From an uncultured bacterium (GTDB lineage: Bacteria; Patescibacteriota; Minisyncoccia; Phycocordibacterales; GWA1-40-21): a stretch of 64,000 bases of DNA. This document shows positions 10,128 through 57,951 of the stretch, piece by piece. Within the stretch, counting starts at the first letter, position 1. The number at the start of each line of letters is the position of its first letter. The notes under the pieces are model-generated. The model saw nothing but the letters and a program-made list of their open reading frames with translations, had not been told where the DNA came from and made no database searches. The translations under genes were made by a program, and so were the position numbers. The stretch lies in assembly GCA_903831305.1 (NCBI GenBank), contig CAIKXE010000008.1, positions 25,105 to 89,104 of the forward strand. Reading direction: 5' to 3'.

Positions 10128-10141
10128 TTCATAAATTTACT

Positions 10142-12578: not shown

Positions 12579-12607
12579 TTGACTTTTACTGTATAATTTG
12601 CTATAGT
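12579..12607 (+). promoter_or_regulatory. Sigma70-like promoter TTGACT-17-TATAGT followed by a GC hairpin/U-tract leader upstream of the GC-rich gene at 12680
   Basis: Read from ttgacttttactgtataatttgctatagt; leader hairpin GGAGACCGGGUGGUUUCC followed by UUGUUUUUG. Confidence 0.4.
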
Positions 12608-12679
12608 AGTAAATAGATAGGAGACCGGGTGGTTTCCTTGTTTTTGTGTAAAGTTCGTTGTCAGAAAGGGTAGAAAGAG

Positions 12680-12943
12680 ATGAAGAAAAGTGATCTGTGG
12701 CTGTTGCTGGTGGTTGCACTCGTGGTGGCGGTGTCCTTTGTGGCACTGCACCGGATGCCGATCACACCCGTGGAGCCCAGGAAGTCGCCGATGGAGAAGG
12801 TCTCCCCGGCACCCGTGAAGGATCTGGGTCCGAAGGTCCCCAAGAAGGTCTTGGGTAACCCGAACGAGCCAAGTGTCAGTGTCGCCAACAAAGGGAAGGG
12901 GTATACGGAAGTGCGGACACGGTTGTCCGTCAGTATCGAGTGA
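12680..12943 (+). CDS. Small membrane/secreted protein (87 aa), GC-rich
   Basis: N-terminal TM/signal segment LWLLLVVALVVAVSFVAL; GC-rich codons. Confidence 0.5.
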   Translation: MKKSDLWLLLVVALVVAVSFVALHRMPITPVEPRKSPMEKVSPAPVKDLGPKVPKKVLGNPNEPSVSVANKGKGYTEVRTRLSVSIE

Positions 12944-13003
12944 ATCAAGAATGTCAGTTCGAAGCGTCCTGAAAGAAAAAGTGTAGAAAGAGGAGATGGT
13001 GAG

Positions 13004-14065
13004 ATGAAGACGAAGATTCTGTCTACGGTTCTCGTGATGTTCGGTCTCGCATCGGCCAACTGGGCGGCATCGGTGGTGGTACCCTCGACGACGGAGCCGG
13101 TGGTTGAGTCCTGGATTCGGCCACTCGTTTCCAAAGCGGTGATGAGGTCATACCTCGTCGAGCGGTCCGTACAAGTGTACGTGGACACATTCGGTGAGGG
13201 AGTGCTGGATCAGAGTGCTGATGGACTTCAGCTCATCGGCAAGGGTGCTGACGAACTCTGTGATTTGGTTGCTGACCAGGTCATCACCTTCAAGGTGGTG
13301 GATGGTCGGGAGGATCAGGTTGGTCAGACCGTCCAGATGTCTGACCAGCTTGGCAACGCGACTTTCCTAGGTTGGAGAGAAGTGCACCTTGACCGAGTCA
13401 ATGGAGGGCTCGTGGTGATGGGTTCTGATGCCATTTCCCTTCAAATGAGTGATAGGGTGATGGTGGAGGTACCGGCGGATATCATCTGGGTCAATGTCTT
13501 GACCCGTGATGAATCTGGCAATGTGGTCGGTGGGTTATATTGCTCCATTTCCAAAATGAATGAGCAGTATTACCTCGAGTTTCCGACCACTGCGTGCGGT
13601 GATTCCTTTGCCCCTGGTTACTACGGTGAACTTACGGCGCAGAGACGGACCAGTGGTGGCGGATATATGACTTCGGTCTATAATCTGTCCACTGGTGAGG
13701 AGTTGCCCAGCACAGACGTCAGCATGGTTATCTCACCGTCGATTGAGGGGGTTAAGGTGCTCGCCGTAGACTCGGATATCATCGAGATCCTACCGAGCAC
13801 TGGTGGAGTTGGTATGAACACCACGTTCATCCTGACTGTAACCAAAAAGATGGAAGTCATCACTAAAGCCAAAACCTCGGAAGGGGAATTGGCAGTCGGG
13901 TGCTTCATCAAGGCAGTGCTGGGCGAGGCGGGCTCCGCTTACGTCTCATCACCGTCAGTGACTCTTCTCCCTGGCAAGTATCATATCCAGTTCGCTTGGA
14001 GTAAGTTCCACGAACTGGGTGAGCGTGCCGAGGGGTGGGATTACTACGACAACGGCAAGGGCTGA
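13004..14065 (+). CDS. Secreted protein of unknown function (353 aa, signal peptide MKTKILSTVLVMFGLASANWAA), GC-rich
   Basis: SD AGAGGAG precedes the ATG. Signal peptide. High GC3. Confidence 0.55.
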   Translation: MKTKILSTVLVMFGLASANWAASVVVPSTTEPVVESWIRPLVSKAVMRSYLVERSVQVYVDTFGEGVLDQSADGLQLIGKGADELCDLVADQVITFKVVDGREDQVGQTVQMSDQLGNATFLGWREVHLDRVNGGLVVMGSDAISLQMSDRVMVEVPADIIWVNVLTRDESGNVVGGLYCSISKMNEQYYLEFPTTACGDSFAPGYYGELTAQRRTSGGGYMTSVYNLSTGEELPSTDVSMVISPSIEGVKVLAVDSDIIEILPSTGGVGMNTTFILTVTKKMEVITKAKTSEGELAVGCFIKAVLGEAGSAYVSSPSVTLLPGKYHIQFAWSKFHELGERAEGWDYYDNGKG

Positions 14066-14083
14066 CGCTCACGCCGAAGTCTC

Positions 14084-14124
14084 AGAGGCGGTCTTGGGGT
14101 TTACCCTGGGGCCGCCTCTTTTTG
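14084..14124 (+). terminator. Intrinsic terminator AGAGGCGG...CCGCCUCU followed by UUUUUG
   Basis: Hairpin followed by a T-run. Confidence 0.7.
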
Positions 14125-21472: not shown

Positions 21473-21486
21473 TTCTATATTATCCC

Positions 21487-21506
21487 AAGTAAGCCATGGC
21501 TTACTT
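21487..21506. promoter_or_regulatory. 20-bp perfect palindrome AAGTAAGCCATGGCTTACTT (copy 3), upstream of the pilin-like gene
   Basis: Exact copy. Confidence 0.7.
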
Positions 21507-21602
21507 GTAATTATGACTAATTAGGTATTGAGTTGAGCCAAACGGTGTGTTGGTTTCCGATGTATATATGCTATTATATTAAGTACAAGTTTATTTAGTA
21601 TT

Positions 21603-22916
21603 ATGAAAAGAAAACACGGTTTTACACTTTTGGAAATATTATTAGTCATCGGTATCATCGCCATCCTTGCTGGTATCGTGATTTTAGCCATCAACCCCAC
21701 CAGACAATTTTCTAATATCCGCAATACTCAAAGAAAGATGAATCTAGCGGAAATCAACAAAGCTTTATACCAATATTATATAGATAATTCCGGTTATCCC
21801 TCCTCTATCACTACTACCCTTACGGAAATCTGTGATACTGGAGCTACCTCAACTGGACACAGCTTGACTTGCACGGGTTTTGTGGATCTTTCCGCTCTTG
21901 TCCCTACCTATTTAGTAGCTATCCCACTTGATCCGAGTGGTGCTATCATCACAGGGGGAGCTGGTTATAAAGTCGCTTTTAATTCTAGTGGAAAGGTGTA
22001 TTTAGCTGGTACCCAGGCTGAAAATGGCGATTCAATTATTTTTGGAAACAATGCTGGGGTTACTATTTTTATTTCGGCAACGGGTGGGGCTATTACTTAT
22101 ACTGATGCCGATGGACAAAATGCCCGTTCTTCACCGGCTTATGCTGGTGGTTATAAACTCCATACCTTTACTACTGATGATGCTTTGATCGTGACGGCGG
22201 GTAGTGATAATGCTCAAGTGTTGGTAGTGGCTGGGGGAGGTGGAGGTGGAGGACGGATGGGTGGTGGTGGTGGGGCGGGTGGTCTGGTTTATACTTCGGC
22301 CGTAGCTGTGACAACCGGCACATATTCTATTGTCATTGGGGCTGGCGGCGCAGGGGCCACTAATTCAAGTACTAGAGGGAGTTCGGGTTCAAATACTTCT
22401 TTTGCGGCGATAATAGCAACAGGCGGTGGAGGAGGTGGAAGCAGAAACTCATCTCCCGCCAATGGAATAAATGGTGGTTCAGGTGGCGGTGGAGGTGGGG
22501 GTGCTGGAACAACTGGCGGGACGGGGACATCTGGACAGGGAAATAATGGCGGAAATGGGAATGGCGATGGCACCAACGGTGGCGGTGGAGGTGGAGGTGG
22601 TGCTGGTGCTGCTGCCAGTAATGTTTCAACGTTTGCACCAACTAGTGGAGGTGTGGGATTAGATTATAGTGGAATTTTTGGAACGGGGGCTGGTGTAGCT
22701 GGTTGGTTTGCTGGTGGTGGTGGAGGAGGGTCGGGCTCTTGGATGAATGCAGCTGGAGCGGGAGGAGGAGGCGGTGGCGGAACGGGAGGAATTTCGAGTG
22801 GTGGTGGTGTAAATGGAACAATTAATACTGGTGGTGGCGGTGGTGGTGGTGGAAACACAGTAAATACAGGTGGCAGTGGCGGGTCGGGCATTGTTATTGT
22901 TAGATATCGGTCATGA
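21603..22916 (+). CDS. Type IV pilin-like protein (class III signal peptide, cleavage site G/FTLLE) with a long Gly-rich low-complexity C-terminal region
   Basis: N-terminus MKRKHGFTLLEILLVIGIIAILAGIVILAI. C-terminus ~200 aa of GGGGxGG tracts. The Pro-rich antisense ORFs are artefacts. Confidence 0.75.
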   Translation: MKRKHGFTLLEILLVIGIIAILAGIVILAINPTRQFSNIRNTQRKMNLAEINKALYQYYIDNSGYPSSITTTLTEICDTGATSTGHSLTCTGFVDLSALVPTYLVAIPLDPSGAIITGGAGYKVAFNSSGKVYLAGTQAENGDSIIFGNNAGVTIFISATGGAITYTDADGQNARSSPAYAGGYKLHTFTTDDALIVTAGSDNAQVLVVAGGGGGGGRMGGGGGAGGLVYTSAVAVTTGTYSIVIGAGGAGATNSSTRGSSGSNTSFAAIIATGGGGGGSRNSSPANGINGGSGGGGGGGAGTTGGTGTSGQGNNGGNGNGDGTNGGGGGGGGAGAAASNVSTFAPTSGGVGLDYSGIFGTGAGVAGWFAGGGGGGSGSWMNAAGAGGGGGGGTGGISSGGGVNGTINTGGGGGGGGNTVNTGGSGGSGIVIVRYRS

Positions 22917-26937: not shown

Positions 26938-27153
26938 ATGAGCAAATATGTTTTAGAGAAAAATATTCGCGGTGAGCTAAAGAGGATCAATGATATTATT
27001 GATCTTAAAATTATCAGAGGGATGCCTTATAAGAGAGAGTCTCTAAGACATCGTTTTTTGCTGTATCGATTGGTGGATTTACACCGCTTGCCCAAGTTTC
27101 ATTCTAACTGGTTTGCGCGGTCAGTAAATGTCATTGCTACTTTTCTGCTATAA
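26938..27153 (+). CDS. Hypothetical small protein (71 aa), first gene of the SOS-box-controlled operon
   Basis: ORF between the LexA box/promoter and lexA. Confidence 0.4.
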   Translation: MSKYVLEKNIRGELKRINDIIDLKIIRGMPYKRESLRHRFLLYRLVDLHRLPKFHSNWFARSVNVIATFLL

Positions 27154-27161
27154 TACTATAT

Positions 27162-27752
27162 ATGTTAAATGATTATAAAAATAAAATAATTTCTTTTTAC
27201 AAGAAAAATAAACGGATGCCGGTTTACACGGAGATTATGAAGCTGGTCGGTTTCAAGTCTAAGAACGCTGTTTCTAAGCTGATCACCAGGCTTGTGGAGG
27301 AAGGAGTCTTAGATAAAGATTCAAGCGGTCATTTGATTCCAAATCAGCTGGTTGGTGAGGTGCCACTACTTGGGCTGGTGGAAGCTGGTTTTCCAACGAC
27401 CGCTGAAGAAAGTCTCCTAGACACTATGAATATTGATGACTATCTTATTCAGAATAAAGATTCCACCTATTTGCTTGAAGTAAAAGGTGAGTCCATGATT
27501 GATGCTGGTATTCATGAAGGGGATTTGGTTATTGCTGAAAAGCTGATCTCTGGTACTTATTCAGGCGGTAAGACGGTGAAGGATGGTGATATTGTCATTG
27601 CGATTGTAGATGGTGGTTCCACCATGAAATATTATCGTAATCGTAAGGGTAAAGTATATTTAGAACCAGCTAATAAGGATTTTAGCCTTATTTTCCCTGA
27701 AAATCAGCTGGAAGTCACCGCTGTGGTGAAAGGCGTGGTCAGAAAGTATTAG
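27162..27752 (+). CDS. lexA: LexA repressor (HTH + S24 peptidase domain)
   Basis: Cleavage-site region VPLLGLVEAGFPT; Ser/Lys dyad context VKGESMIDAGI...; C-terminal GDIVIAIVDGGSTMKYY. Confidence 0.85.
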   Translation: MLNDYKNKIISFYKKNKRMPVYTEIMKLVGFKSKNAVSKLITRLVEEGVLDKDSSGHLIPNQLVGEVPLLGLVEAGFPTTAEESLLDTMNIDDYLIQNKDSTYLLEVKGESMIDAGIHEGDLVIAEKLISGTYSGGKTVKDGDIVIAIVDGGSTMKYYRNRKGKVYLEPANKDFSLIFPENQLEVTAVVKGVVRKY

Positions 27753-35038: not shown

Positions 35039-35932
35039 TTAAGTTAGTTTTATTTCACCGAGGACCTCTTTGATCAAACCCTTGAGCTCCATCACAGAGA
35101 GGACGGCGTTAGCTTGACCTGTGGGCATATTGAGCGAGCGGAGGAGAACATCTTTTTCCATCGGCTCGCGGAGAAGGGTAATCACCTTTTTTTCTTCCGC
35201 AGAACACTCGGCATATTCTAATTCTAAATTTCGAGGGGCGGAATCACGGTCCTTAAAGCCTAGAGCCAGCAGTAACTCCTTGGAACTAGTAATCGGCGTG
35301 GCGCCCAACCGTATCAGCATATGTGGACCCTCAGAGGTTTTAGAAAAAATGGATCCAGGGACAGTCAGCACATCTTTATTATAATCAGTAGCTAACCTAG
35401 AAGTAATTAAGGTTCCAGACTTAATCTCTGCTTCAATAATTAAAACAGCAGAAGATAGTCCAGCCATAATGCGGTTACGCTGGGGGAAACTATACTGAGT
35501 GGCTTTAAAGTCGGCGTCATATTCGGAAAGCATACAGCCACCACTTTCTAATATTTTTCTGGCTAAGCCAATATGGGCTTGGGGGTGGAGAGAAGTCACG
35601 CCTAATCCAGAGCCGGGAACAGAAATGGTTTTTAGTCCGGTATTGATAGCCGCCTCGTGAGCGATACCATCAATACCAATGGCTAGTCCAGAGACAATAG
35701 CCACATCATAACCACGAAGGCCGGCAATTAATTTTTCACAGGCTTCCTTGCCATAGTTCGTATACCGCCGGCTACCGACGACGCAAAGTAGTTTGGTATT
35801 GGGGCCGGGTAGGTCACCGCGTAAATAGAGTTTTTCCGGTGGCTCCGGAATCTCTAAAAGAGCTTCGGGAAAATTCTTCTTTTTAAGTTCATGGATGGGG
35901 AAGTCTCTGTCAATAATATGTTCAATTTTCAT
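35039..35932 (-). CDS. dprA: DNA processing protein DprA (Smf)
   Basis: GSRRYTNYG and GLAIGIDGIAHEAA Rossmann DprA motifs. Confidence 0.8.
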   Translation of the reverse strand: MKIEHIIDRDFPIHELKKKNFPEALLEIPEPPEKLYLRGDLPGPNTKLLCVVGSRRYTNYGKEACEKLIAGLRGYDVAIVSGLAIGIDGIAHEAAINTGLKTISVPGSGLGVTSLHPQAHIGLARKILESGGCMLSEYDADFKATQYSFPQRNRIMAGLSSAVLIIEAEIKSGTLITSRLATDYNKDVLTVPGSIFSKTSEGPHMLIRLGATPITSSKELLLALGFKDRDSAPRNLELEYAECSAEEKKVITLLREPMEKDVLLRSLNMPTGQANAVLSVMELKGLIKEVLGEIKLT

Positions 35933-38273: not shown

Positions 38274-39266
38274 ATGAAAAAAAACTTTTGGGAAAAATTA
38301 GATAAGCCGTTTTTTTGTTTAGCACCCATGGCGGATGTGACGGATATCGCTTTTCGAAAAATGCTTGCTAAATATGGTAAAAATCCAGCCAATAAAAATC
38401 AGGTGGTGTTTTGGACGGAGTTTGTTTCTGCGGACGGTTTGTGTCACCCTAAAGGCCGGCCACATTTACTGCCGACCTTAAAATTTTCTAAAATCGAGAA
38501 GCCGATCGTTGCTCAAGTGTTTGGTGCTAATCCGGCCAATATGGAAAAAGCCTGCCGACTGATTTCAAAGCTGGGTTTTGACGGTATTGATATTAATATG
38601 GGTTGTCCAGATAAAAGTGTGATCAAACAAGGGGCAGGTTCCGCTTTGATTAAAAATCCTAAACTCGCTCGGGAGATAATCCAGAGCGCGATTTTAGGCG
38701 CAGGTGGATTACCGGTATCAGTGAAAACTAGAGCCGGTTTTAATAAAGAAGAGATTGATACCTGGATTCCGGAATTGTTAAAGGAAGATATCAAGGCCCT
38801 CACTATCCACGCGCGAACAAAAAAGGAGATGTCTAAAGTGCCAGCGCACTGGGATTATGTGAAGCGGGTGGTAGAGCTCGTGAAGAAAAGTGGTAAGGCT
38901 ATCCCGGTGATTGGTAATGGTGATGTAGTAGATATTGCTGATGGTCAAAAAAAAAGTATTGAAACTGGTTGTGCTGGGGTGATGGTGGGGCGGGGAGTGT
39001 TTGGCAATCCGTGGTTTTTTTCTGGCCGAAAAATAGAAACAGTGAGCATAACAGAAAAAATAAAAGCATTGGTTGAACATATTAAAATTTTTGATAAAGA
39101 ATTACTTAAGACCAAGATAAAAAACTATGCGGTGATGAAAAAGCATTTTAAGGCGTATATAAATGGTTTTGCCGGAGCCAAGGAATTAAGAGAGAAGCTG
39201 ATGGCAACGGAGACCCCTAAAGAAAGCGTCCATATTTTGTCTTCCTTCCTAAAAACCATTAAATAA
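38274..39266 (+). CDS. dus: tRNA-dihydrouridine synthase
   Basis: LAPMADVTDIAFR; catalytic INMGCP; TIM-barrel length. Confidence 0.8.
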   Translation: MKKNFWEKLDKPFFCLAPMADVTDIAFRKMLAKYGKNPANKNQVVFWTEFVSADGLCHPKGRPHLLPTLKFSKIEKPIVAQVFGANPANMEKACRLISKLGFDGIDINMGCPDKSVIKQGAGSALIKNPKLAREIIQSAILGAGGLPVSVKTRAGFNKEEIDTWIPELLKEDIKALTIHARTKKEMSKVPAHWDYVKRVVELVKKSGKAIPVIGNGDVVDIADGQKKSIETGCAGVMVGRGVFGNPWFFSGRKIETVSITEKIKALVEHIKIFDKELLKTKIKNYAVMKKHFKAYINGFAGAKELREKLMATETPKESVHILSSFLKTIK

Positions 39267-39297
39267 AGGTTGTTTTGGCGGCCTTTATGGTAAATGC

Positions 39298-39326
39298 TTG
39301 ACTTTACCATAATATTATGCTAGTAT
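39298..39326 (+). promoter_or_regulatory. Sigma70 promoter TTGACT-17-TAGTAT for the GC-rich secreted-protein cassette
   Basis: Read from ttgactttaccataatattatgctagtat. Confidence 0.5.
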
Positions 39327-39423
39327 ATTAGATAGATAGTCCTGATAAACCAACCATATTTATTGCTTGCCCTATCGGGTGGCGTATGGCTGGAATCAGG
39401 AAGGATTGAAAGGGAAGAGTCCG

Positions 39424-39915
39424 ATGAGTAAGTTCATTGCAATGCTGACCGTCTTGGTTGCCTTGGTGGCGACCGTGTCGGCACAGGATCTGGAGATCGC
39501 TAAGTTCCAGATCCAGAACCATGACATTACTGTAGAGGTCATGAAACCCAGACTTGCCGCAATCTCACAGCACTGGGGACGGCCAGTTGTGACCGGTGTT
39601 GTGACGATCGTCATTCATAACCAGATGGAGATCGTCAGTGTCCAGAGTAACTGGAACGGAGAGGAAGGTGACGGAAGTCGCTTCTCGTACACCTTGGTCT
39701 ATCGGTTGAAGGGTGTGACGGTCGGTGAGGCACACCTTACATCATACTCATTGAGTCTCTTCAAGTTCTCGTCAACAAGTAAAGACTGTGTTGACGACTT
39801 GTGGATCACCCCGATGGGAGTGGTGCCGGAGGACGATATTGTCCGATTCCGGTCTGCCGAAGTTGGGGAGGATATCCATAACGGTACTAATCCTCGCAAG
39901 TTTCTGAAGAAGTAA
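39424..39915 (+). CDS. Small secreted protein (signal peptide MSKFIAMLTVLVALVATVSAQD), GC-rich
   Basis: SD GGGAAG precedes the ATG. GC-rich codons; ~95-nt GC-rich leader. Confidence 0.55.
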   Translation: MSKFIAMLTVLVALVATVSAQDLEIAKFQIQNHDITVEVMKPRLAAISQHWGRPVVTGVVTIVIHNQMEIVSVQSNWNGEEGDGSRFSYTLVYRLKGVTVGEAHLTSYSLSLFKFSSTSKDCVDDLWITPMGVVPEDDIVRFRSAEVGEDIHNGTNPRKFLKK

Positions 39916-39943
39916 CAAACAAGCACAAAGAGGAAAGGAGGTG

Positions 39944-39975
39944 GCCCCGACATTCGTGTCGGGGCTATTCGTTTG
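39944..39975 (+). terminator. Intrinsic terminator GCCCCGAC-AUUCGU-GUCGGGGC followed by U-tract
   Basis: Hairpin followed by a T-rich tract. Confidence 0.65.
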
Positions 39976-40016
39976 TCCATTTTTGTAAATCAGCTAAATT
40001 CTGTTATACTAGACCC

Positions 40017-41054
40017 ATGTCTGAAACCGCATTGTATCGCAAATACCGCCCGCAAAAGTTTTCTGAAGTCTTGGGGCAAGATCATATTGTAAAGGTGCTG
40101 GAATCATCCATTGATCTGGATCGTCTTTCTCATGCTTATATTTTTTCTGGGAGCCGGGGAACGGGCAAGACCTCTGTGGCCCGTATTTTTGCCCGCGAGA
40201 TCGGCACCAGTGTGAATGACATTACCGAGATTGACGCCGCTTCTAATAACGGTGTGGACGAGATCCGCGCCTTGACTGAAGCTGTCAGTACCTTACCTTT
40301 TGAATCAAAATACAAAGTGTATATTTTAGATGAAGCGCACATGCTCTCTAAAGGTGCTTGGAATGCCTTGCTGAAAACCTTGGAAGAGCCACCAAAGCAT
40401 GTGATTTTTATCCTAGCTACGACTGAGTTTGAAAAGATACCGGAGACCGTGATTTCCCGTTGTCAGAATTTTTCTTTTAAAAGACCGACGCAAAAAGTCC
40501 TAAAGGAAGTGGTTATAGCGATTGCTAAGAAGGAGGGCTTTGGGCTGGAGCCTGCCTCAGCTGATTTGGTGGCTCTGCTTGGTGACGGTTCCTTCCGTGA
40601 TGCGCAGAGTATTTTACAAAAGGTAATGGGCTCATCAAAGGATAAAATGATATCATTGGCTGAAGTAGTATTAGTGACGGGGGCACCACGGGGGGAGATG
40701 ATCAATGATTTTATCCGGGCGATAGATGAGAATAATCTGGGGCTTGGCTTGGCCTCGGTTTCCTTAGCCCTGGAGGCAAATATGGATATGCTACTGTATT
40801 TTAAATTAGTGTTGCACAAAATGCGCACTATTTTACTCTTGCGTAATTTAAAATCCGCCGAGGAAAAATTAAGAGAAGAGTTGACCGATACGGATTTTAC
40901 TTTCCTTAAAGCGTTGGCTGAAAAAAGGGATGGTAAAATCAACTCTGACACCTTGCTTACCTTGCTTACTCATTATGATCTGGTCTCTCACGCCTATCTC
41001 CCTGAGATGGTCTTGGAACTGCTATTGAATAAGTTAATCACTACTAAGGAATAA
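40017..41054 (+). CDS. dnaX: DNA polymerase III subunit gamma/tau (short form)
   Basis: YRPQKFSEVLGQ, Walker A GSRGTGKTS and DEAHML. Confidence 0.85.
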   Translation: MSETALYRKYRPQKFSEVLGQDHIVKVLESSIDLDRLSHAYIFSGSRGTGKTSVARIFAREIGTSVNDITEIDAASNNGVDEIRALTEAVSTLPFESKYKVYILDEAHMLSKGAWNALLKTLEEPPKHVIFILATTEFEKIPETVISRCQNFSFKRPTQKVLKEVVIAIAKKEGFGLEPASADLVALLGDGSFRDAQSILQKVMGSSKDKMISLAEVVLVTGAPRGEMINDFIRAIDENNLGLGLASVSLALEANMDMLLYFKLVLHKMRTILLLRNLKSAEEKLREELTDTDFTFLKALAEKRDGKINSDTLLTLLTHYDLVSHAYLPEMVLELLLNKLITTKE

Positions 41055-44280: not shown

Positions 44281-44769
44281 TTAGCTACCGTGTGGTAGCC
44301 AGATGGGGACTCGAGAAAGGTCAGGAATTGAGACATATGGGTCGTCATAACGTAGCACCCTTATTGCTCTAAAATTGGAGTCGTTATAGTGTGTTATTGA
44401 CCTCAATCTGAAGTCGTGAAAGCCATCAAAGCGTTCAAACGTTCCAAAGTTGAGCCCTTCTTCATATGCCTGGATGTAGGCCAAGCCAAAAGTGGTAATG
44501 TAGACCATGGCCTTCCCTTGAAGGCACTTAAGGTAATTCAGTACCTCTTGCTCGGTAGGGTTGCCCCTAAACCTAATCCTGTCATGATAGACATTAATGT
44601 CATTACCCCAGACGTAGGTAACAGAATCGATCTGTTCCCTAGATAGGTCATGACTGGTGTTAATGACTACAGACGGCTTGCCAGAGCTATCATTCAGAAT
44701 TCGAGATCTGGCATCGTTCGTACAGATCAGTTGATACATGGTTGCGTTCCTTTTTGTTGTTGGATTCAT
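44281..44769 (-). CDS. Hypothetical protein (162 aa), moderately GC-rich
   Basis: ORF only; no confident motif. Confidence 0.35.
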   Translation of the reverse strand: MNPTTKRNATMYQLICTNDARSRILNDSSGKPSVVINTSHDLSREQIDSVTYVWGNDINVYHDRIRFRGNPTEQEVLNYLKCLQGKAMVYITTFGLAYIQAYEEGLNFGTFERFDGFHDFRLRSITHYNDSNFRAIRVLRYDDPYVSIPDLSRVPIWLPHGS

Positions 44770-45032
44770 TCAATACACGAAACGGAAGCTAAACACACAG
44801 GCGGGCAATTTCACGCTTTTGAGGGACACCTCCTTTCTTGAGTTGTGAGAGAACTTGTGGTCTGGTATAAGTATAGCATGATAAATATAGCCAGACAATA
44901 GGGGATTGTGGGTAACTTGTTTTTGACAGTAATATGTTTGATTGTTTGCCGTCTAATTAGGTGTATAATGATAGTGTAATTTAATAGGTAAAAAATTTAG
45001 GTAAAATAAATAATACTTAAATATTTAGGAAT

Positions 45033-46817: not shown

Positions 46818-47570
46818 CTAGTTTTTGGAACGCTTCCAATTATCTAGTAGTACGGCGGTGGCGATGGAGACATTTAAAGATTCAGTTTTGCCATAAGCAG
46901 GAATATTAATTTTATTTGTCACTAAACTTTCTATTTCCTTATCAATGCCGTTTGATTCATTACCCATCACTAATATTCCACCATTGGGGAATTTAAAATT
47001 ATGAGCATTTTCTCCGGTCATAAAAGCTCCGAGGATAGGGGTATTCACATTACTTAAAAAAGACTTAAGATCTGCATAAAAGACCTGGACACGGGTAAAA
47101 GAGCCCTTGGTAGCGGAGATGACCTTAGGATTATATAGATCCACAGTACCGATAGAGGCAATGATTTTTTTAATACCATACCAGTCCGCGATACGGATTA
47201 TAGTGCCTAAATTCCCCGGATCACGCACATTATCCAAAGCTAGGATGATCTCATCACCGGTAATTTTAAAATCTAGGACAGGCATATCTTTTTGTTTGAC
47301 GACCGCAAGCACAGAATCATTACTGTCTAAACTGCTGACCTTTTCAATCTCACCGGCCTCTACGAGCTCGCAATTAACATTTTTGGTGTTAATAATTTTT
47401 TGGTATTTTGAATAAAAAGACTTGGTGGTAATCAGGGTTTTGATTTCAAAATTTGACTGCAGAGTCTCAACGACACTTTTTTCACCTTCTACAAGGAATA
47501 GACCGGTTTTCTGGCGGTTTTTTTTATCAGCTAGGGATTTTATGATATTAGCTTGGCTTTTGGTAAACAT
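46818..47570 (-). CDS. SpoU/TrmH-family RNA 2'-O-methyltransferase
   Basis: DNVRDPGNLGTIIRIADWYG and MGNESNGI SPOUT motifs. Confidence 0.75.
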   Translation of the reverse strand: MFTKSQANIIKSLADKKNRQKTGLFLVEGEKSVVETLQSNFEIKTLITTKSFYSKYQKIINTKNVNCELVEAGEIEKVSSLDSNDSVLAVVKQKDMPVLDFKITGDEIILALDNVRDPGNLGTIIRIADWYGIKKIIASIGTVDLYNPKVISATKGSFTRVQVFYADLKSFLSNVNTPILGAFMTGENAHNFKFPNGGILVMGNESNGIDKEIESLVTNKINIPAYGKTESLNVSIATAVLLDNWKRSKN

Positions 47571-47602
47571 TTGTCAACTATAGCATATTTGCTCTAAATA
47601 AA

Positions 47603-50667: not shown

Positions 50668-50748
50668 AGTGGTTTGTTTTTATTTTCTATTTGGTGTACT
50701 GTTTCGATAGAGTTGTTGTTTTGAAACCAAAAGTTAAGGAGATAGATC

Positions 50749-51225
50749 ATGTTGGACAATGTGAAGGTCGGTCAGCACGTGATTATTTATGGTCTGGAGC
50801 AAAAGTACTACGGGGTCGGAGCAGAGGTCGTTTCTGAGGCATACAGTTGTGTTGTACATGAGGTACCAACACAAGTTGTGGCGGTCAAAGTCTTTTATCA
50901 AGAGTGGGGTCTCTTCTCTAATAATGGGGAGTGGCATGAAACGATTTTGATTATTAGTATCCATCAAATGAAGCCGGATACTTACCATGCCTTTGAAAAG
51001 AAAAGGCTAAAGATGAAGTTCGGTGGGTATTGGTCCACTGAATTACTGGCTCAACCTTTGAATCGGGAAGCAGAATGCGCCTTTTGCGGTAACCGGGTTC
51101 ATGTCAGGATTGAGATGAATCACTCGGGCTGTATTCGACAGTACGATGTCTGCCGTCCATGTGCCAAGCGCTGGGATGGCGTTTGGTCTGACTGCCCACC
51201 GGAGAAAAAGGTCAAGGCTGTCTGA
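50749..51225 (+). CDS. Hypothetical Cys-rich protein (C-terminal CAFCGN...CRPCAKRW), GC-enriched
   Basis: SD AAGGAG precedes the ATG. Composition differs from the backbone. Confidence 0.45.
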   Translation: MLDNVKVGQHVIIYGLEQKYYGVGAEVVSEAYSCVVHEVPTQVVAVKVFYQEWGLFSNNGEWHETILIISIHQMKPDTYHAFEKKRLKMKFGGYWSTELLAQPLNREAECAFCGNRVHVRIEMNHSGCIRQYDVCRPCAKRWDGVWSDCPPEKKVKAV

Positions 51226-51789: not shown

Positions 51790-51955
51790 GGGGGTTGATT
51801 TTATTAATTTATATGGTAGGTTATATGTAGGTTGTACTTTGTATTGTGGATTGTAATGCCAATCGTATGATTGGTGCTTCCACCCTGGTGGTGGAGGAAC
51901 GGCGTTTGATGCGTTCGCCAATAATGCATCAGGTTTGTTTCAGAAAGGGGTTCGT

Positions 51956-52375
51956 ATGAACTCTCCAGTCGTGGTAGGTGCAAGGCGGGTGCTGTACCGG
52001 GGTAAGATCACCAAAGGTCCCTCGTTGCACTCTCTGATCGTGTCACTAACATTCGTTCAGACCCTCAATGGTTGGATGGAGATTCCGGTAACGTTCGGTA
52101 TTGACCCTATCGTCACCGGGAGTGCTGGGGACTTTTCCTGGAACATCTCGGCCTTCTGGATGGTCGTCCATTCATTGGGTCGCGAGGATGGTGATTACGT
52201 CAACTGGAAGATCGTGGGAGAACCAGAAAGGCGTGAGTCAGCTCAAACCATACTTCGGGCTTTCGGTGTCTCTTACGAGGGGCAACGGATACCACGAATT
52301 CGGTTTGAGATTGAGTATTCTACCTCAGGCCAGGCAGGCCGGTCTGGAGAAGTGGAGGTCTGTATTTACGACTGA
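51956..52375 (+). CDS. Hypothetical GC-rich protein (139 aa) with a ~100-nt GC-rich structured leader
   Basis: SD AAAGGGG precedes the ATG. High GC3. Confidence 0.45.
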   Translation: MNSPVVVGARRVLYRGKITKGPSLHSLIVSLTFVQTLNGWMEIPVTFGIDPIVTGSAGDFSWNISAFWMVVHSLGREDGDYVNWKIVGEPERRESAQTILRAFGVSYEGQRIPRIRFEIEYSTSGQAGRSGEVEVCIYD

Positions 52376-52477: not shown

Positions 52478-54487
52478 ATGTCAAACCAGAAATTTAAATT
52501 ACAAGCCCAATATAAGCCCGCGGGGGACCAGCCCAAAGCCATAGAACAGCTCGTGGCGGGATTAAAAAAAGGTTATGAGAACCAGACGCTTTTGGGCGTG
52601 ACCGGATCCGGCAAGACTTTTACCATGGCCAATGTGATTGAACAGATTCAGAAGCCCACCTTGGTGATTGCCCATAATAAAACCTTGGCGGCCCAGCTGG
52701 CTCAAGAGTATAAGGAATTTTTCCCGGATAATGCCGTACATTATTTTGTCTCGTACTATGATTATTATCAGCCAGAGGCCTATATTCCAGTGACGGATAC
52801 TTATATTGAAAAGGAAGCAATGATCAACGAAGAGATTGACCGTTTACGCCATGCTTCCACTCAGGCATTACTCACGAGAAAAGATGTGATTATAGTGGCC
52901 TCGGTTTCCTGTATTTATGGCTTGGGTTCACCGGCGGAATATGAAAAAGTAAATTTAAAAATAGCAGTAGGGATGGAGATCAGCCGAGCGGAGATGATTC
53001 GCAAATTTATCAATATTCATTTTGAAAGAAATAATACAGATTTAAAGCCTGGGGAGTTCCGCGCGGTGGGAAACTCCTTAGAAATAATGCCGGTAAACGA
53101 AAAGTTGATTTACCGGATTACTTTTGCGGAGAATAAGATAGGTGATATTGTAAAGATGGATGGTGTGACCCGGCGGATAGTGAGTGATGAGAAAACTTTC
53201 TTTTTATTTCCGGCCAAACATTTTATTACTAACGAGGAGGAAAAAAAGCTGGCAATAAAAAGTATCAAATCAGAACTTGAAGCCCAGCTTAAATTATTAA
53301 AAAAGGAGGGCAAGCTTTTGGAAGCTGAGAGATTGAAGAGACGAACGACTTATGATTTATCTTTAATAAAGGAGGTGGGTTATTGTAATGGGATTGAAAA
53401 TTATTCTAGACATTTTTCTGGTAAAGGTGCAGGCGAGCCACCAGATAGCTTACTCTCATATTTTGGTCCAGATTTTCTGACCATTATTGACGAATCGCAC
53501 GTCACCATCCCACAGCTGAACGGAATGTATGCCGGGGACGCCTCTCGTAAGAAAAATCTAATTGATCACGGTTTTCGTTTGCCATCTTCTCGGGACAATA
53601 GACCATTGAAATTTCCCGAGTTTGTGGAGCGGGTGAATCAAGTTATTTATACTTCTGCCACCCCAAGTGACTATGAACTGGAGAAAAGTGCTCAGGTGGT
53701 GGAGCAGGTAATCAGGCCGACTGGTTTGATTGATCCTGAGGTTGAGATCCGTGGAATAATAGAGCAAGGTTCATATAAAGGCCAGGTTTTTGATTTTATA
53801 GCAGAGACGGAAAAGGTAATCAAAGGTGGCGGGCGAGTGATTGCTACCACTTTGACCAAGAAGATGGCGGAGGATTTAAGCGAATATTTGAAGGCTAAAA
53901 GTATTAAAGCGGAATATTTGCACAGTGATATTAAAACGATTGACCGGATTCAGATTTTGACGGATTTTAGAAAGGGCAAATTTGATTGTATTGTGGGGGT
54001 GAACCTCTTGCGTGAGGGTTTGGACCTACCAGAAGTGGAGTTTATCGGAATTTTAGATGCCGATAAAGAAGGTTTTTTGCGCTCTGATACTTCTTTGATT
54101 CAGATCATTGGCCGAGCCGCTAGAAATGTGAAGGGCAAGGTAGTTCTATATGCTGATCATATTACTGGTTCAATCACCAGGGCTATCAATGAGACAAATA
54201 GAAGGCGTGAAGTCCAGGTGACCTATAACAAAAAGCACAATATTACTCCTAAGACAATTATAAAAAATATTCGGGATATTATGGAAGATTTGAAATCGCC
54301 ACATGATAAGGCGGTGATGGAGGTGCTAAAGATTGATCAGGAGATTATGGGTAAGAACCCTAAAAAACTGATTAAGCAGAAAGAAATTCAGCTTAATGCC
54401 GCGGTCAAAATACTGGACTTTGAAACGGCAGCTATTATCCGTGATGAACTGATTGCCATCAAAAAGGCTCTTAGTAAAAAAAGTTAG
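52478..54487 (+). CDS. uvrB: Excinuclease ABC subunit B
   Basis: FKLQAQYKPAGDQP; Walker A GVTGSGKT; helicase motifs; C-terminal UVR domain AAIIRDELIAIKK. Confidence 0.9.
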   Translation: MSNQKFKLQAQYKPAGDQPKAIEQLVAGLKKGYENQTLLGVTGSGKTFTMANVIEQIQKPTLVIAHNKTLAAQLAQEYKEFFPDNAVHYFVSYYDYYQPEAYIPVTDTYIEKEAMINEEIDRLRHASTQALLTRKDVIIVASVSCIYGLGSPAEYEKVNLKIAVGMEISRAEMIRKFINIHFERNNTDLKPGEFRAVGNSLEIMPVNEKLIYRITFAENKIGDIVKMDGVTRRIVSDEKTFFLFPAKHFITNEEEKKLAIKSIKSELEAQLKLLKKEGKLLEAERLKRRTTYDLSLIKEVGYCNGIENYSRHFSGKGAGEPPDSLLSYFGPDFLTIIDESHVTIPQLNGMYAGDASRKKNLIDHGFRLPSSRDNRPLKFPEFVERVNQVIYTSATPSDYELEKSAQVVEQVIRPTGLIDPEVEIRGIIEQGSYKGQVFDFIAETEKVIKGGGRVIATTLTKKMAEDLSEYLKAKSIKAEYLHSDIKTIDRIQILTDFRKGKFDCIVGVNLLREGLDLPEVEFIGILDADKEGFLRSDTSLIQIIGRAARNVKGKVVLYADHITGSITRAINETNRRREVQVTYNKKHNITPKTIIKNIRDIMEDLKSPHDKAVMEVLKIDQEIMGKNPKKLIKQKEIQLNAAVKILDFETAAIIRDELIAIKKALSKKS

Positions 54488-54509
54488 GAATTTATGCTAG
54501 AATCACTCT

Positions 54510-56225
54510 ATGTTTAAATGGCCATGGCAGAGGAGTCATATTCGTTATGAAAAAAGAGAGAAGGATATTGATCCAGACGAGATTTTTATTGATTCAGAAA
54601 ATTTGCCAAACTTTGATGTTTATCAGTTTGAGGGTCGGTTGGAAAAACCGATTTCTCGCCGTAGCTTGTTTAGCCTTGGGGTAGTAGTTTTAATAATTAT
54701 TTTAGTTTTTATTTTCAGAATTGGAAATTTACAAATCAGTAATGGTGAATATTATTTTACAAAAAGTGAAAATAATCGTTTACGAAACTCATTGATTTTT
54801 GCCAAAAGAGGCGTGGTTTATGACCGCGTAGGTACCAAACTTGTCTGGAATGCTGAAAATCTACAGGATAAGGCTTTTGACTTAAGAAAATACATTCCGC
54901 TTGACGGTCTCTCTCATCTTTTGGGTTATTTAAAGTATCCCTCTAAAGATAAATATGGTTTTTATTTTACTGAGGTTTTTGATGGTAAAGATGGTGTAGA
55001 GAAAGTATATAATGATATTTTATCGGGGGAAAACGGCAAGAGGATTGTGGAGGTGGACGCCCTTGGAGCGGTGCAGTCAGAAAATATTATTCACAATGCT
55101 CAGGATGGAGAAAATATTACCTTGACGGTGGATGCTGACGTTCAGAATAAAATTTACCAAGAAATTAAAAGCTTAGCACAAAAAGTCGGTTTTTCTGGCG
55201 GAGCGGGGATAATCATGGATGTGAATACTGGGGCGGTGCTTGCGATGACTAGTTATCCGGAATACAGTTCACAGATATTAACTGATGGGCAAAATAAAAG
55301 TGTAATAAATAAATATCTGACTGACAAAAATACACCTTTTCTCAATCGGGTGATTGATGGTCTCTATACCCCAGGGTCTACCGTCAAACCCTACATGGCC
55401 TTTGCCGCCTTGAGTGAAAATATCATTGATCCATATCAGAATATTTTTGGTGCTGCTTATATTTCTATTCCCAATCCCTATGACTCCACCAAGCCCACTA
55501 TTTTTAAAGACTGGAAGGCGCATGGCTATGTGGATATGAAGAAGGCGTTGGCCGTATCATCAGACATCTATTTTTATGAGATTGGTGGTGGTTATGAGAA
55601 TCAAAAGGGTTTGGGTATTTTAGCTATTGATAAGTATATGAAAATGTTTGGCTTTGGTGAAGCCCTAAGCACCCCTTTCTTTTCTGGCGAAGCGGGAGTG
55701 ATACCAACTCCTGAGTGGAAGAAAGCTAATTTTGACGGTGATGAGTGGCGGGTAGGAAATACTTATCATACTTCTATTGGTCAGTATGGTTTTCAGGTGA
55801 GTCCCGTCCAGATGGTGCGGGCGGTCTCGGCTCTGGCCAATGGTGGTAGACTGATAGAGCCAGAAATATTGTTAGACCAAGCTGATCATTTGGATGATAG
55901 AGTAACTGATTTAAACTTGAATCAAGCGGATTTAAAAATTGTGCGGGAGGGTATGCACGATGGTGTGATAAAAGATTATGGTGTGGCCAAGGGACTAAAT
56001 AGTAGTGATTATACCGTGGCCGCCAAGACCGGTACAGCCGAGCTTGGGGTTTATAAGCAGTATGTAAATTCTTGGGTGACCGGTTTTTTCCCGTATGAAA
56101 ATCCTAAATATGCTTTTGTGATTATCATGGAAAAAGGTCCCGTGGCTAATACCACCGGTGCCACCTCTGTCATGCGCCAGGTGCTCGACTATATGGCGGT
56201 CTATAAAAGTGAGTATTTGAAGTAG
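54510..56225 (+). CDS. Penicillin-binding protein 2-type peptidoglycan D,D-transpeptidase
   Basis: TM anchor; SxxK GSTVKP, SxN-like SSD, KTGT. Confidence 0.8.
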   Translation: MFKWPWQRSHIRYEKREKDIDPDEIFIDSENLPNFDVYQFEGRLEKPISRRSLFSLGVVVLIIILVFIFRIGNLQISNGEYYFTKSENNRLRNSLIFAKRGVVYDRVGTKLVWNAENLQDKAFDLRKYIPLDGLSHLLGYLKYPSKDKYGFYFTEVFDGKDGVEKVYNDILSGENGKRIVEVDALGAVQSENIIHNAQDGENITLTVDADVQNKIYQEIKSLAQKVGFSGGAGIIMDVNTGAVLAMTSYPEYSSQILTDGQNKSVINKYLTDKNTPFLNRVIDGLYTPGSTVKPYMAFAALSENIIDPYQNIFGAAYISIPNPYDSTKPTIFKDWKAHGYVDMKKALAVSSDIYFYEIGGGYENQKGLGILAIDKYMKMFGFGEALSTPFFSGEAGVIPTPEWKKANFDGDEWRVGNTYHTSIGQYGFQVSPVQMVRAVSALANGGRLIEPEILLDQADHLDDRVTDLNLNQADLKIVREGMHDGVIKDYGVAKGLNSSDYTVAAKTGTAELGVYKQYVNSWVTGFFPYENPKYAFVIIMEKGPVANTTGATSVMRQVLDYMAVYKSEYLK

Positions 56226-56253
56226 TTGTGGTTTTTTATGCTAGAATAGGGGG

Positions 56254-57951
56254 ATGACACAAGCGGAGGCGTTGGACATTTTGAAATTAGGGCACAATGT
56301 TTTTTTGACTGGTCCGGCTGGAAGCGGTAAAACGCATTTGCTGAATAAATATATTAATTTTCTAAAGGATAATTATGTGGATGTGGGGATTACCGCTTCC
56401 ACCGGTATTGCCGCTACGCATATGGGTGGTACCACTATCCACTCCTGGACCGGGATGGGAATTAAGGATGCTTTGAATAAAGGAGACTTGGAAGAATTAA
56501 AATCTCGGAAATATCTGCGGGACCGTTTTGACCGGACCCAAGTCCTAGTGATTGACGAGGTGTCCATGCTCCACCACTTTCGTTTAGACTTGATTGATCA
56601 GATTTGCCGGCATATGAAAAATAGTAATGATCCGTTTGGTGGGATGCAAATTATCCTCTGCGGAGACTTTTTTCAGCTACCACCAGTGGCCCGCTCTGGT
56701 GAACCATTAGCGCAGTTTGCCTATGAAGCGGAGATCTGGAAGGAAGCGAATTTCAAAATATGTTATCTGGAGGAACAACACCGCCAGACTGACTCCGCTT
56801 TTCTAAAGGTTTTAAACGAAATCCGTGGAAACAGATTATCGGAAGAAGGGATGAAACACTTGCTGTCTCGTTCCAAAAACTCTGCCCATTCGCCTGTTTT
56901 GGCGAATGATTTTAAAGAGCCGACAAGACTGCATACGCATAATATTGACGTTGACGAAATTAATCAAAGAGAACTCCTAAAATTGCATGGCCAGCAACGA
57001 GAATATCAGATGGAGAGTAAGGGGAGAAAGCCCTTAGTAGATTCTTTGATTAAGAGTTGCTTGGCGCCAGAAGTATTAAAGCTGAAAGTGGGAGCCAAGG
57101 TGATGTTTGTTAAAAATAATTTTGAGGAGGGTTATGTCAATGGGACTTTGGGTAAAATTGTGGGCTTTGACTATGACGGACCGATTGTGCAGATTACAAA
57201 CGGTAAAAACATCCACGCTAAAACAGCCAACTGGATGATCGAGGAAGATGGCAAGGCAAAGGCAAGTATTGGTCAGTACCCTCTGCGGTTAGCCTGGGCG
57301 ATCACGGTGCATAAGAGCCAGGGGATGAGCTTGGATGCCATAGAGGTGGATTTATCAAAATCATTTGAAAAAGGTATGGGCTATGTGGCTCTTTCCCGCG
57401 TACGTTCCCTTGAGGGTCTTACCTTGCTTGGGCTAAATGAGATAGCCGTGCAAGTGCGCGGAGAGGTATTAGACTTTGATGAAGAATTAAAAAAGATTTC
57501 TAATAAGCATTTGGCGGAGATGGTCAGTTTGTCTGATGCGGATAGATTAGAAAAGCAGAAAAAGTTTTTGAAAAAGATTTCACCGGAGCGCACTTCTACT
57601 GGCCGAATTAAAAAAGTAAAAATTTCTACTTTTGATGAGACAAGGAAGTATTTGGAGGCGGGGCTGAACTTGAATGAGATCGCTTCGGCTAAGGGGACCA
57701 GGGTTGGCACGGTTTTGGACCATTTGGAAAAATTGCTAGCGGAGGATTCTCGACTTGATATCAGACATTTGGAGGGTGAGATTCCGGTTTCAAAATTTAA
57801 GAAAATATATAAAGCCTTCAATGATATTTATGGTGATAATCGGGAGCTACGCCTCTCTCCAGTGATGAAAATCCTCGGTGGTGAAAACGCCGGTTTCCAG
57901 TTTGAGGATTTGCGCTTGGTCCGTCTGTTTTTGAAAAAGAAGGGGATGTAG
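56254..57951 (+). CDS. Pif1/RecD-like SF1B DNA helicase with C-terminal HTH-like extension
   Basis: Walker A TGPAGSGKTHLL; VIDEVSML; ITVHKSQG; C-terminal NLNEIASAKGTRVGTVLDHLEKL. Confidence 0.75.
   Translation: MTQAEALDILKLGHNVFLTGPAGSGKTHLLNKYINFLKDNYVDVGITASTGIAATHMGGTTIHSWTGMGIKDALNKGDLEELKSRKYLRDRFDRTQVLVIDEVSMLHHFRLDLIDQICRHMKNSNDPFGGMQIILCGDFFQLPPVARSGEPLAQFAYEAEIWKEANFKICYLEEQHRQTDSAFLKVLNEIRGNRLSEEGMKHLLSRSKNSAHSPVLANDFKEPTRLHTHNIDVDEINQRELLKLHGQQREYQMESKGRKPLVDSLIKSCLAPEVLKLKVGAKVMFVKNNFEEGYVNGTLGKIVGFDYDGPIVQITNGKNIHAKTANWMIEEDGKAKASIGQYPLRLAWAITVHKSQGMSLDAIEVDLSKSFEKGMGYVALSRVRSLEGLTLLGLNEIAVQVRGEVLDFDEELKKISNKHLAEMVSLSDADRLEKQKKFLKKISPERTSTGRIKKVKISTFDETRKYLEAGLNLNEIASAKGTRVGTVLDHLEKLLAEDSRLDIRHLEGEIPVSKFKKIYKAFNDIYGDNRELRLSPVMKILGGENAGFQFEDLRLVRLFLKKKGM

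Follow-up and report, generated by a model that had tools for sequence, protein, structure and literature searches.

The window analysed here is a 64,000-nucleotide stretch of chromosome from an ultra-small groundwater bacterium of the Patescibacteria/Paceibacterota (candidate phyla radiation, CPR). Between its core genes dus and dnaX lies a monocistronic unit (39298–39976) comprising a promoter, a leader, an open reading frame (ORF) for a 163-residue protein, and a GC hairpin; the dnaX gene that follows is leaderless. We consider it reasonably probable that this unit is an autonomous, "moron-like" accessory expression cassette, laterally gained, with a base composition and a leader that are functional or maintained. 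In AT-rich hosts, genes of this protein family keep GC-rich synonymous sites along with a constrained promoter, leader, and terminator, which argues that composition and leader are functional or actively maintained, and not merely the signature of a donor.

This suggests a model in which a strong σ70-type promoter, combining a consensus −35 element with the extended −10 element of the lineage, would start a monocistronic mRNA. The leader would fold as a closed stem-loop domain, leaving the purine-rich 5′ end and the ribosome-binding stretch single-stranded. Translation would yield a Sec-type pre-protein, whose all-β mature part would leave the cell, either to stay on its surface or to enter the medium. 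The GC hairpin would then end the transcript, and dnaX would restart from its own leaderless promoter. Presumably, the unit entered the dus–dnaX spacer laterally, most likely by recombination through the conserved core genes after DNA uptake. The leader may serve to stabilise the mRNA, to control its translation, or both, in an otherwise leaderless system, and the protein may take part in interactions at the cell surface or with a partner.

A constrained gene and its homologues

The identical protein, with the same junctions to dus and dnaX, was found in 10 places in independent assemblies (ENA, Logan, and JGI; with the DNA itself available for eight of them), and 16 contigs carry the protein overall. 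In one of the 10, the ftsQ-like gene is preceded by a different neighbour. Because the same junctions recur in independent assemblies, the cassette is not an assembly artefact.

A word-indexed search of 5.8e9 proteins returned only the identical protein and a single homologue, 60% identical, on a 1.2-kb contig (L009) where it adjoins a GIY-YIG gene and not dnaX. With the family profile, the same search, limited in its number of candidates, contributed few additional proteins. The two cassettes align from the −35 box to just past the terminator tail, and the flanks diverge beyond. Within the ORF, identity is 76% and 78% at the first and second codon positions and 48% at the third; the nonsynonymous divergence (dN) is 0.29 and the synonymous divergence (dS) 2.3, for a dN/dS of ~0.13. 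This is the substitution pattern of a coding sequence. Identity in the non-coding parts is 76% (promoter), 73% (leader), and 70% (3′ untranslated region and terminator), compared with the 48% at third positions. These parts thus match codon positions 1 and 2 in their conservation, and so purifying selection acts on the promoter, the leader, and the 3′ untranslated region with terminator as well as on the protein.

A HMMER profile of the two proteins, run over 1.8e9 representative proteins, gave 16 hits. Thirteen of these are 164–253 residues long, with amino-terminal signal peptides and shared motifs; P0003 to P0013 match across ~125–165 residues (E = 1.8e-25 to 6.7e-10) at 28–41% identity to the window protein. 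The family is rare, with ~15 detected members. A metagenome-locus search with a five-sequence alignment added one locus only.

That the unit is an assembly chimera or contamination, or that its ORF arose by chance in a GC-rich structured RNA, is scarcely credible. Such an origin would fit the abrupt change in composition and the lack of a match in Pfam, PHROGs, or PDB; it would leave the 10 independently assembled contigs, the coding substitution pattern, and a 15-member family with a confident AlphaFold2 (AF2) model without explanation.

Base composition and its upkeep

The ORF has a GC content of 0.51 and a third-position GC content (GC3) of 0.63. The 49 other window genes average 0.374 (standard deviation 0.067, maximum 0.477), so the GC-rich codons reported by the initial annotation are borne out at z = 3.9. 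Family genes elsewhere stand out in the same way, at GC3 0.53–0.78 versus 0.19–0.37 for their neighbours (L009, L090, L091, L093, L094, L096, and L101).

Two diverged genomes of Staskawiczbacteria (loci L090 and L091) carry orthologues at the same site, where efp has a GC3 of 0.19 beside a family gene at 0.68–0.72. Between these loci, the flanking genes have dS 0.68–1.27, with 35–49% of four-fold sites different and a GC content at those sites (GC4) of 0.14–0.27. The family gene has dS 1.28, with 53% of four-fold sites different and GC4 of 0.76 and 0.75. About half of its silent sites have been replaced, without drift toward the composition of the host. Because a GC4 of ~0.75 is kept at dS ~1.3, the GC-richness of family genes in AT-rich hosts appears to be maintained, which speaks against a donor signature in the course of fading. 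The pattern favours selection on the mRNA or its codons, or GC-biased conversion, or, as a less simple account, a GC-rich pool from which alleles have been replaced repeatedly.

The initial annotation had implied that GC-richness reflects recent foreign origin. In its full form, this explanation holds that the cassette came recently from a GC-richer donor outside the CPR, that its codons and Shine–Dalgarno (SD)-type leader are a donor signature undergoing amelioration, and that nothing is maintained. We regard it as unlikely. It accommodates the deviant GC3, the absence of the gene at this site in all relatives, and an SD-like leader unlike those of the leaderless host genes; among the other GC-rich ORFs of the window, a metallophosphoesterase (PF12850) may also be of outside origin. 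However, all identifiable family contexts are Patescibacteria (the window, L090, and L098), the promoter, whose extended −10 element is of the host type, is conserved together with the cassette, and neither the 5.8e9 nor the 1.8e9 proteins include a donor homologue. The L090/L091 pair, with GC4 0.75 beside flanks at 0.14–0.27, points the same way. With the family known to date only from Patescibacteria-type contexts and its GC content persisting across saturating synonymous divergence, the case for recent foreign origin is weakened.

GC-biased gene conversion, which reportedly operates in bacteria, offers another route: the cassette would be a recombination hot spot with frequent exchange of alleles between strains, at which GC alleles become fixed at synonymous sites without selection on the mRNA. 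The site is highly variable between species, the window contains the competence gene dprA (35039–35932, by Pfam), and the family is fast-evolving (dN 0.27–0.29) yet high in GC4. If conversion were at work, its tracts should extend into the flanks, but GC content drops sharply at the cassette borders (0.23 in the promoter, 0.33–0.38 at the 3′ end of dus), and this explanation too we judge improbable.

Finally, the gene might be very highly expressed and use the optimal C- or G-ending codons of the genome. The genes for L21, S1, GreA, and SerS, likely highly expressed, are shifted likewise (C3+G3 0.46 versus 0.37), and the cassette promoter is near-consensus. Nevertheless, this shift is small: GC3 reaches no more than 0.477 among the 49 host genes, compared with 0.63–0.76 in the cassettes, and efp is at 0.19 beside its GC-rich neighbour in L090 and L091. 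Translational selection alone seems too weak to explain the GC3, and as the full explanation it is very improbable.

Cassette anatomy and leader RNA

The promoter described by the initial annotation is present, with its −35 element TTGACT at 39298–39303 and its −10 element TAGTAT at 39321–39326; a TG before the latter makes it an extended −10. The pattern TTGACT-N17-TAKWRT occurs twice in 64 kb (39298 and 12579), versus 0.15 occurrences expected. The box that follows probably supplies the transcript with a single-stranded 5′ end, and the predicted start lies at ~39333. The leader therefrom to the ATG at 39424 is ~91 nt long (~95 nt had been given), and its GC content of 0.46 is rich only relative to AT-rich intergenic DNA such as the promoter (0.23). 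The protein, annotated as 164 residues, has 163 plus the stop codon. By eye, its amino terminus, MSKFIAMLTVLVALVATVSA/QD, resembles a Sec signal peptide (residues ~1–20, 39424–39483); a mature domain of ~143 residues, predicted to be all-β, follows. Downstream, the hairpin at 39944–39965 (9–11 bp, then TATTCGTTTGT) has a folding energy of −26 kcal/mol (z = −4.6) and is kept in L009.

The leader encodes an outer helix, in which UCCUGAU (39340–39346) pairs with AUCAGGA (39395–39401), along with further helices inside it and a terminal hairpin (GCCC/GGGU, 39369–39380). Its minimum free energy (MFE) is −30 kcal/mol (z = −2.5); 3 of 200 shuffled sequences fold equally well. The L009 leader retains the window helix with two compensatory pairs. 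Three Staskawiczbacteria leaders (L090/L091) share a similar closed-hairpin topology, in which GGACAU/AUGUCC is replaced by GAACAU/AUGUUC. In five further members, UUUCACNNN pairs with NNNGUGAAA 25–30 nt downstream: another sequence with the same geometry, whose 3′ strand ends 15–18 nt before the ATG. Paired positions among these five covary (CUG/CAG, UUG/CAA, UUA/UAA, and UUU/AAA). The same subtype has a mutually exclusive local hairpin, AGGG/CCCU, which becomes AGAG/CUCU in L094. Together, these patterns are suggestive, rather than proof, of a conserved leader structure across the family. Rfam 15 gave only chance-level hits (E > 1) on 39250–40020, none on the leader at gathering thresholds, and no hit in the leaders of six other loci.

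The leader may also contain a short upstream ORF. L009 has MWKGIRKV (stop) at the same place as the candidate in the window, and a 3-nt indel between them keeps the frame; from these two sequences, a shared upstream ORF of 7–8 codons is a doubtful proposition. A leaderless upstream ORF common to all subtypes was considered as well. It is plausible in L090 and the second L091 copy and absent from the window, and was rejected.

A shared promoter module in a largely leaderless host

Most mRNAs of the host appear to be leaderless. In at least 13 genes of the window, an extended −10 box (TGnTAnnnT) ends 6–7 nt before the start codon (for example at 27140–27164, 46818–47600 on the minus strand, 54485–54512, 56230–56256, and 40000–40019), a distance that implies leaderless transcripts. 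Few of them have an SD-like sequence, their −35 boxes are weak by inspection, and operon-internal starts also lack an SD. The dnaX promoter ends 6 nt before the ATG, so that dnaX is leaderless.

The GC-rich ORFs of the window at 10263, 10779, 12680/13004, and 39424 have a different design: a consensus −35 element; an extended −10 element of the same type; a leader of 70–110 nt; and a purine-rich or SD-like region. The initial annotation held that the cassette shares its architecture with a "cluster 1", and this is so: the promoter at 12579 carries the matching module and drives two GC-rich signal-peptide ORFs (12680–12943 and 13004–14065, GC3 0.76 and 0.63), whose proteins are unrelated to the 163-residue family. 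The promoters at 12579 and 39318 have TGCTAnnnTnnTArATAGATAG in common. A module of ~45 nt, TATTGACTTTT-N9-ATATGCTAnnAT-TAAATAGATAGG, is found in both window cassettes, in homologous cassettes elsewhere, and in the unrelated dus–dnaX cassettes of L010 and L026. Cassettes with this module have further traits in common: their leader is long, its ribosome-binding region is rich in purines, and a GC hairpin is present. The proposal of a common expression mechanism is thereby upheld, as the module recurs before unrelated genes in different genomes.

Within the family, a TTGAC(T/A) promoter and a leader of 85–130 nt precede the gene in the window, L009, L090, L091 (both copies), L093, L094, L096, and L101. 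The L098 gene has a promoter and a long leader only, and the L097 gene a leader only (its contig ends inside the promoter); L095 is uninformative for this comparison, as is L100, where no such promoter is seen ahead of the gene.

Cluster 1 as a whole (10130–14130) consists of GC-rich leadered ORFs with GC3 0.63–0.76. Besides the pair at 12680 and 13004, it includes an ORF at 10263–10610, with a signal peptide followed by a low-complexity, possibly decayed carboxyl terminus, and the metallophosphoesterase at 10779–11915. These ORFs surround an AT-rich, leaderless, stand-alone Peptidase_C39-like gene (12046–12534).

Milder cases of GC-rich leadered ORFs begin at 44281 (minus strand), 50749, and 51935. 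The corresponding orphan ORFs (44281–44880, minus strand; 50700–51225; 51820–52375) have GC3 0.50, 0.52, and 0.57 and match nothing in Pfam or PHROGs; they resemble less pronounced members of the cassette class. The first has a CTATTGTCTGG...ATGCTATACT promoter with a 100-nt leader, and the second an AAGGAG SD.

Elsewhere, L101 has a second GC-rich gene (1347–2075, 242 residues, GC3 0.68) upstream of its family member. The terminator AAGCTCAACTTCGGTTGrGCTTT stands after each of the two L101 genes and also after the L097 gene (downstream of 629); terminator modules are therefore shared between cassettes, as promoter modules are. In L096, two hammerhead-ribozyme-like elements (1059–1108 and 1732–1786, with CUGAUGAG...CGAAA cores) each lie just 3′ of one of two consecutive GC-rich signal-peptide ORFs, one of them the family member. 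Their Rfam matches are Hammerhead_3 (34.1 bits, E = 3.5e-4, below gathering) and HH9 (E = 0.7). The arrangement suggests that ribozymes may separate cassette transcripts in the L096 genome. Rfam found no hammerhead-like elements in the window.

The dus–dnaX site across relatives

Both neighbours of the cassette are core genes, as the initial annotation stated: dus by its Pfam domain, and a DnaX-like clamp loader. The order serS, ftsQ-like, dus, dnaX is retained in ~50 species-level genomes of Paceibacterota. The window DnaX is 82% identical to that of "AlinenLipids_bin-6017", the closest GTDB relative; 75–76% to those of other Paceibacterota metagenome-assembled genomes (MAGs); and 50–63% to those of Nomura-, Taylor-, and Zambryskibacteria MAGs.

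Among 52 related species with dus and dnaX syntenic, dus abuts dnaX within 12–105 nt in 22, the empty-site arrangement that the initial annotation had proposed to look for. The remaining 30 have 129–2251 nt of unrelated content. Far from an orthologue of similar GC content standing here in all relatives, a homologue of the 163-residue protein is present at this site in none of the 52. The gene is therefore accessory, and its description as an accessory insertion at a variable site is supported.

Some of the other occupants resemble it. GC-rich lipoprotein genes (GC3 0.67–0.68) occupy the site in L026 and L036. In L026, TTGACTTTT promoters open the units, whose closing GC hairpins lie immediately upstream of a leaderless dnaX. 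Three small units fill the spacer of the closest relative (L010), each comprising a promoter, "GAAAGGAGG", a short ORF, and a terminator; the first opens with TTGACTTTTACTGTA, the same 15 nt as the second cassette of the window at 12579. Other species have ordinary AT-typical genes, such as the two-gene inserts of L038 and L040. Independent transcription units have thus landed repeatedly in the dus–dnaX spacer.

Among the closest relatives, the spacers of three loci (L010:4757–6000, L011:952–1310, and L014:5735–6000) hold one to three short, GC-richer units, each with a promoter, the "GAAAGGAGG" box, an ORF of only 20–35 codons, and a strong hairpin. They are possibly small-protein genes, small RNA genes, or decayed cassettes. 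By eye, in unaligned sequence, the last L010 unit and the L011 unit look homologous.

The common insertion mechanism suggested by the initial annotation found no support at the cassette borders, where no flanking direct repeat, target-site duplication, att-like site, or integrase was found. No tRNA gene adjoins the cassette (the nearest is at 41784, past dnaX), and the window contains a single recombinase gene, of the serine resolvase type, at a distance of 32 kb. A 13-nt inverted repeat corresponds simply to the two −10 boxes. The simplest route of acquisition would be uptake of DNA followed by recombination through the conserved flanks.

Protein family and fold

The family motifs are Q-C-H-W-D-G, RYxYTLxYRLKG, YSxNLxDF, and MGVxPEDGIVxFRTA. 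The last three are kept in the window protein, as RFSYTLVYRLKG, YSLSLFKF, and MGVVPEDDIVRFRSA, and likewise in L009. All aligned members begin, by eye, with MKK and a hydrophobic stretch. From its sequence, the window protein is a divergent member of a rare secreted-protein family without a name; sequence-profile searches of Pfam, PHROGs, and PDB with the protein and its family gave no match. A relationship to the 353-residue cluster 1 protein or to the second L096 ORF was also considered, and hhalign showed none.

From the 15-sequence alignment, AlphaFold predicts a confident all-β model, with a predicted local distance difference test score (pLDDT) of 85.6 and a predicted template-modelling (TM) score (pTM) of 0.78; the two-sequence alignment gave a pLDDT of 37 and was unusable. 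Foldseek searches with the model found TM scores below 0.25 in PDB and nothing in BFVD. No family relatives were found in 2.9 million viral contigs.

All identifiable hosts are Patescibacteria: that of the window; Ca. Staskawiczbacteria (L090); and a "Patescibacteria group bacterium" from Hainich groundwater (L098). The remaining loci resemble Patescibacteria contexts, though taxonomically unassigned. In L090 (1349–4600) and L091 (1335–5727), the family gene, in two tandem copies in L091, lies before efp and follows two small membrane-protein genes and a gene for an 825-residue ATPase (PF02534/DUF87/DUF8128) resembling type IV secretion system coupling proteins. Judging from this neighbourhood, the gene may be linked in function to an apparatus for secretion or DNA transfer. 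The most economical reading of the 163-residue protein is that of a predicted exported binding or surface protein.

Evidence that weighs against the cassette model

Several observations count against the interpretation of the unit as a maintained, autonomous cassette with a functional leader. The L009 leader folds no better than its shuffles (z = −1.2), and the covariation comes from two, three, and five sequences per subtype, in three subtypes that are mutually unalignable. A simple pattern scan for terminators gave no call at 39944–39976, where the T-run is interrupted; since the scan missed it, the "strong terminator" of the initial annotation is a predicted one, whereas the GC hairpin itself stands. 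The expression of the cassette, its transcription start, and the export of its product are predictions.

With respect to composition, the family gene in the GC-richer host L098 shows zero contrast with its neighbours, and that in L097 has a GC3 of only 0.44. The argument for maintained GC content comes from one orthologous pair, L090/L091, and the same pattern would arise if alleles had been replaced independently from a GC-rich pool.

The closest relatives (75–82% DnaX identity) include no empty site; their sites hold other units, which blurs the boundaries and mechanism of insertion. Finally, QCHWDG, the most conserved family motif, reads QSNWNG in both the window protein and L009, so that only W and G are kept. 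If the Cys, His, and Asp residues form a metal or active site, the window/L009 sub-branch has lost it.

Likeness to known systems

Phage "morons" are reportedly self-contained units of promoter, gene, and terminator. The cassette shares this organisation with them, along with a deviant composition, a position between genes that are adjacent in relatives, and a product of the secreted or surface type that morons often encode. It differs in having no prophage context, PHROG family, viral-contig relative (0 in the 2.9 million), or BFVD fold. Moreover, its flanks are chromosomal core genes, and its composition is maintained family-wide in AT-rich hosts and not derived from a single donor. The cassette works like a moron in its architecture, yet is not filed as one, as the prophage context of the original definition is absent.

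Genomic islets and strain-specific ORFans resemble the cassette in their patchy presence, variable intergenic hot spot, and atypical GC3. Unlike them, it has a constrained promoter and leader module common to unrelated cassettes, and a GC excess that spans dS > 1, contrary to classical amelioration.

Integron cassettes consist of a promoterless ORF and attC, with an IntI integrase and attI nearby; like the present unit, they are small, single-gene, mobile, and accumulate at one site. An integron gene cassette was rejected nonetheless: the unit has its own promoter, followed downstream by only a terminator hairpin, and no attC-like repeat or integrase. An integrase-mediated island or prophage remnant was rejected for want of border repeats, an integrase, an adjacent tRNA gene, PHROG hits, and viral-contig relatives.

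Stabilising or regulatory 5′ leaders include the Escherichia coli ompA 5′ untranslated region, the Bacillus subtilis aprE leader, and the B. thuringiensis cryIIIA STAB-SD. In these, as in the cassette, a long 5′ untranslated region with a stable stem-loop and then a purine-rich, SD-like stretch precedes the gene for a secreted or abundant protein. The cassette leader differs in that it has no sequence or Rfam relationship to them, that ~10 nt at its 5′ end are predicted to be unpaired, and that it sits in a genome with mostly leaderless mRNAs.

A possible gene class

More tentatively, and with less probability than for the cassette itself, such units may form a distinct class of Paceibacterota genes: monocistronic cassettes that are GC-rich and carry a leader, that in many cases encode exported proteins, and that have the ~45-nt promoter module, conserved structured leaders, and a GC content actively maintained in AT-rich, largely leaderless genomes. 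The fold of the 163-residue protein would have no relative among solved structures or viral models. A literature search found no description of this phenomenon.

In the usual view, CPR bacteria live attached to other cells. Surface and secreted proteins make up the portion of their tiny genomes that varies most and is least well understood. If the class is real, these bacteria would have a second, separately tuned expression regime for secretome or interaction genes, and the conserved structured leaders would be undescribed cis-regulatory or stabilising RNA motifs. The cassette gives a recognisable search signature: the consensus promoter module; the long structured leader; GC-rich codons; and the GC hairpin. 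Deviant base composition, usually taken for a sign of recently arrived foreign DNA, can be a lasting trait of a class of genes, which, if general, affects the detection of horizontal transfer and the binning of genomes in these phyla. The cassette also raises the question of why GC-rich, leadered mRNAs persist in a leaderless, AT-rich translation system.

Other features of the window

Features of the cassette, its flanking genes, and the second cassette (window coordinates)
Feature	Position	Strand	Evidence or remark
dus (tRNA dihydrouridine synthase), upstream core gene	38274..39266	+	PF01207, E = 4e-63
Cassette promoter, −35 TTGACT, 17-nt spacer, extended −10 TGCTAGTAT	39298..39326	+	76% identity to L009 promoter; fits consensus module alignment
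Conserved start-site box ATTAGATAGATAG, consensus TAAATAGATAGG	39327..39339	+	Common to window 12599–12620 and L009
Structured leader domain	39340..39401	+	Outer helix, inner helices, terminal hairpin; MFE −30 kcal/mol
Candidate 7-codon upstream ORF MAGIRKD (stop)	39386..39409	+	Overlaps 3′ strand of outer helix
Purine-rich ribosome-binding region AGGAUUGAAAGGGAAGAGUCCG	39402..39423	+	Most host genes without one, starting 6–7 nt past the −10 box
Coding sequence, 163-residue pre-protein	39424..39915	+	GC3 0.63; AF2 model; family alignment
Terminator-like GC hairpin GCCCCGACA / TGTCGGGGC and U-rich tail	39944..39976	+	Inverted repeat; kept in L009
dnaX promoter, TTGTAA-16-TATACT with TG	39983..40010	+	Ends 6 nt before ATG
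dnaX-like clamp-loader ATPase, downstream core gene	40017..41054	+	PF13177 and AAA domains
Second cassette ("cluster 1")	12579..14122	+	TTGACTTTTACTGTATAATTTGCTATAGT plus TAAATAGATAGG, ~70-nt leader, two GC-rich signal-peptide ORFs, GC hairpin

The serine recombinase (6134–7897, 567 residues, with a Resolvase amino-terminal domain) ends beside an opposite-strand tRNA-Asn gene (7825–7897). The ~8 kb around it, which include an SNF2/PLD helicase-nuclease gene, are the most AT-rich part of the window (GC 0.31–0.35) and may be a separate mobile or defence island.

Within 14378–14560, the 19-nt sequence GCGGGGGATGTAGGAATCG occurs twice, at 14378 and at ~14532, the latter at a tRNA-Trp gene (14530–14601, minus strand). 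The copy at 14378 may represent a duplicated piece of the tRNA gene, for example the scar of an old integration.

Finally, three copies of a 30-nt element with the palindrome AAGTAAGCCATGGCTTACTT lie ~455 nt apart in 20569–21507. They flank a small gene (21086–21472) and lie upstream of a type IV pilin-like gene (N_methyl and Gly-rich, 21603–22916).

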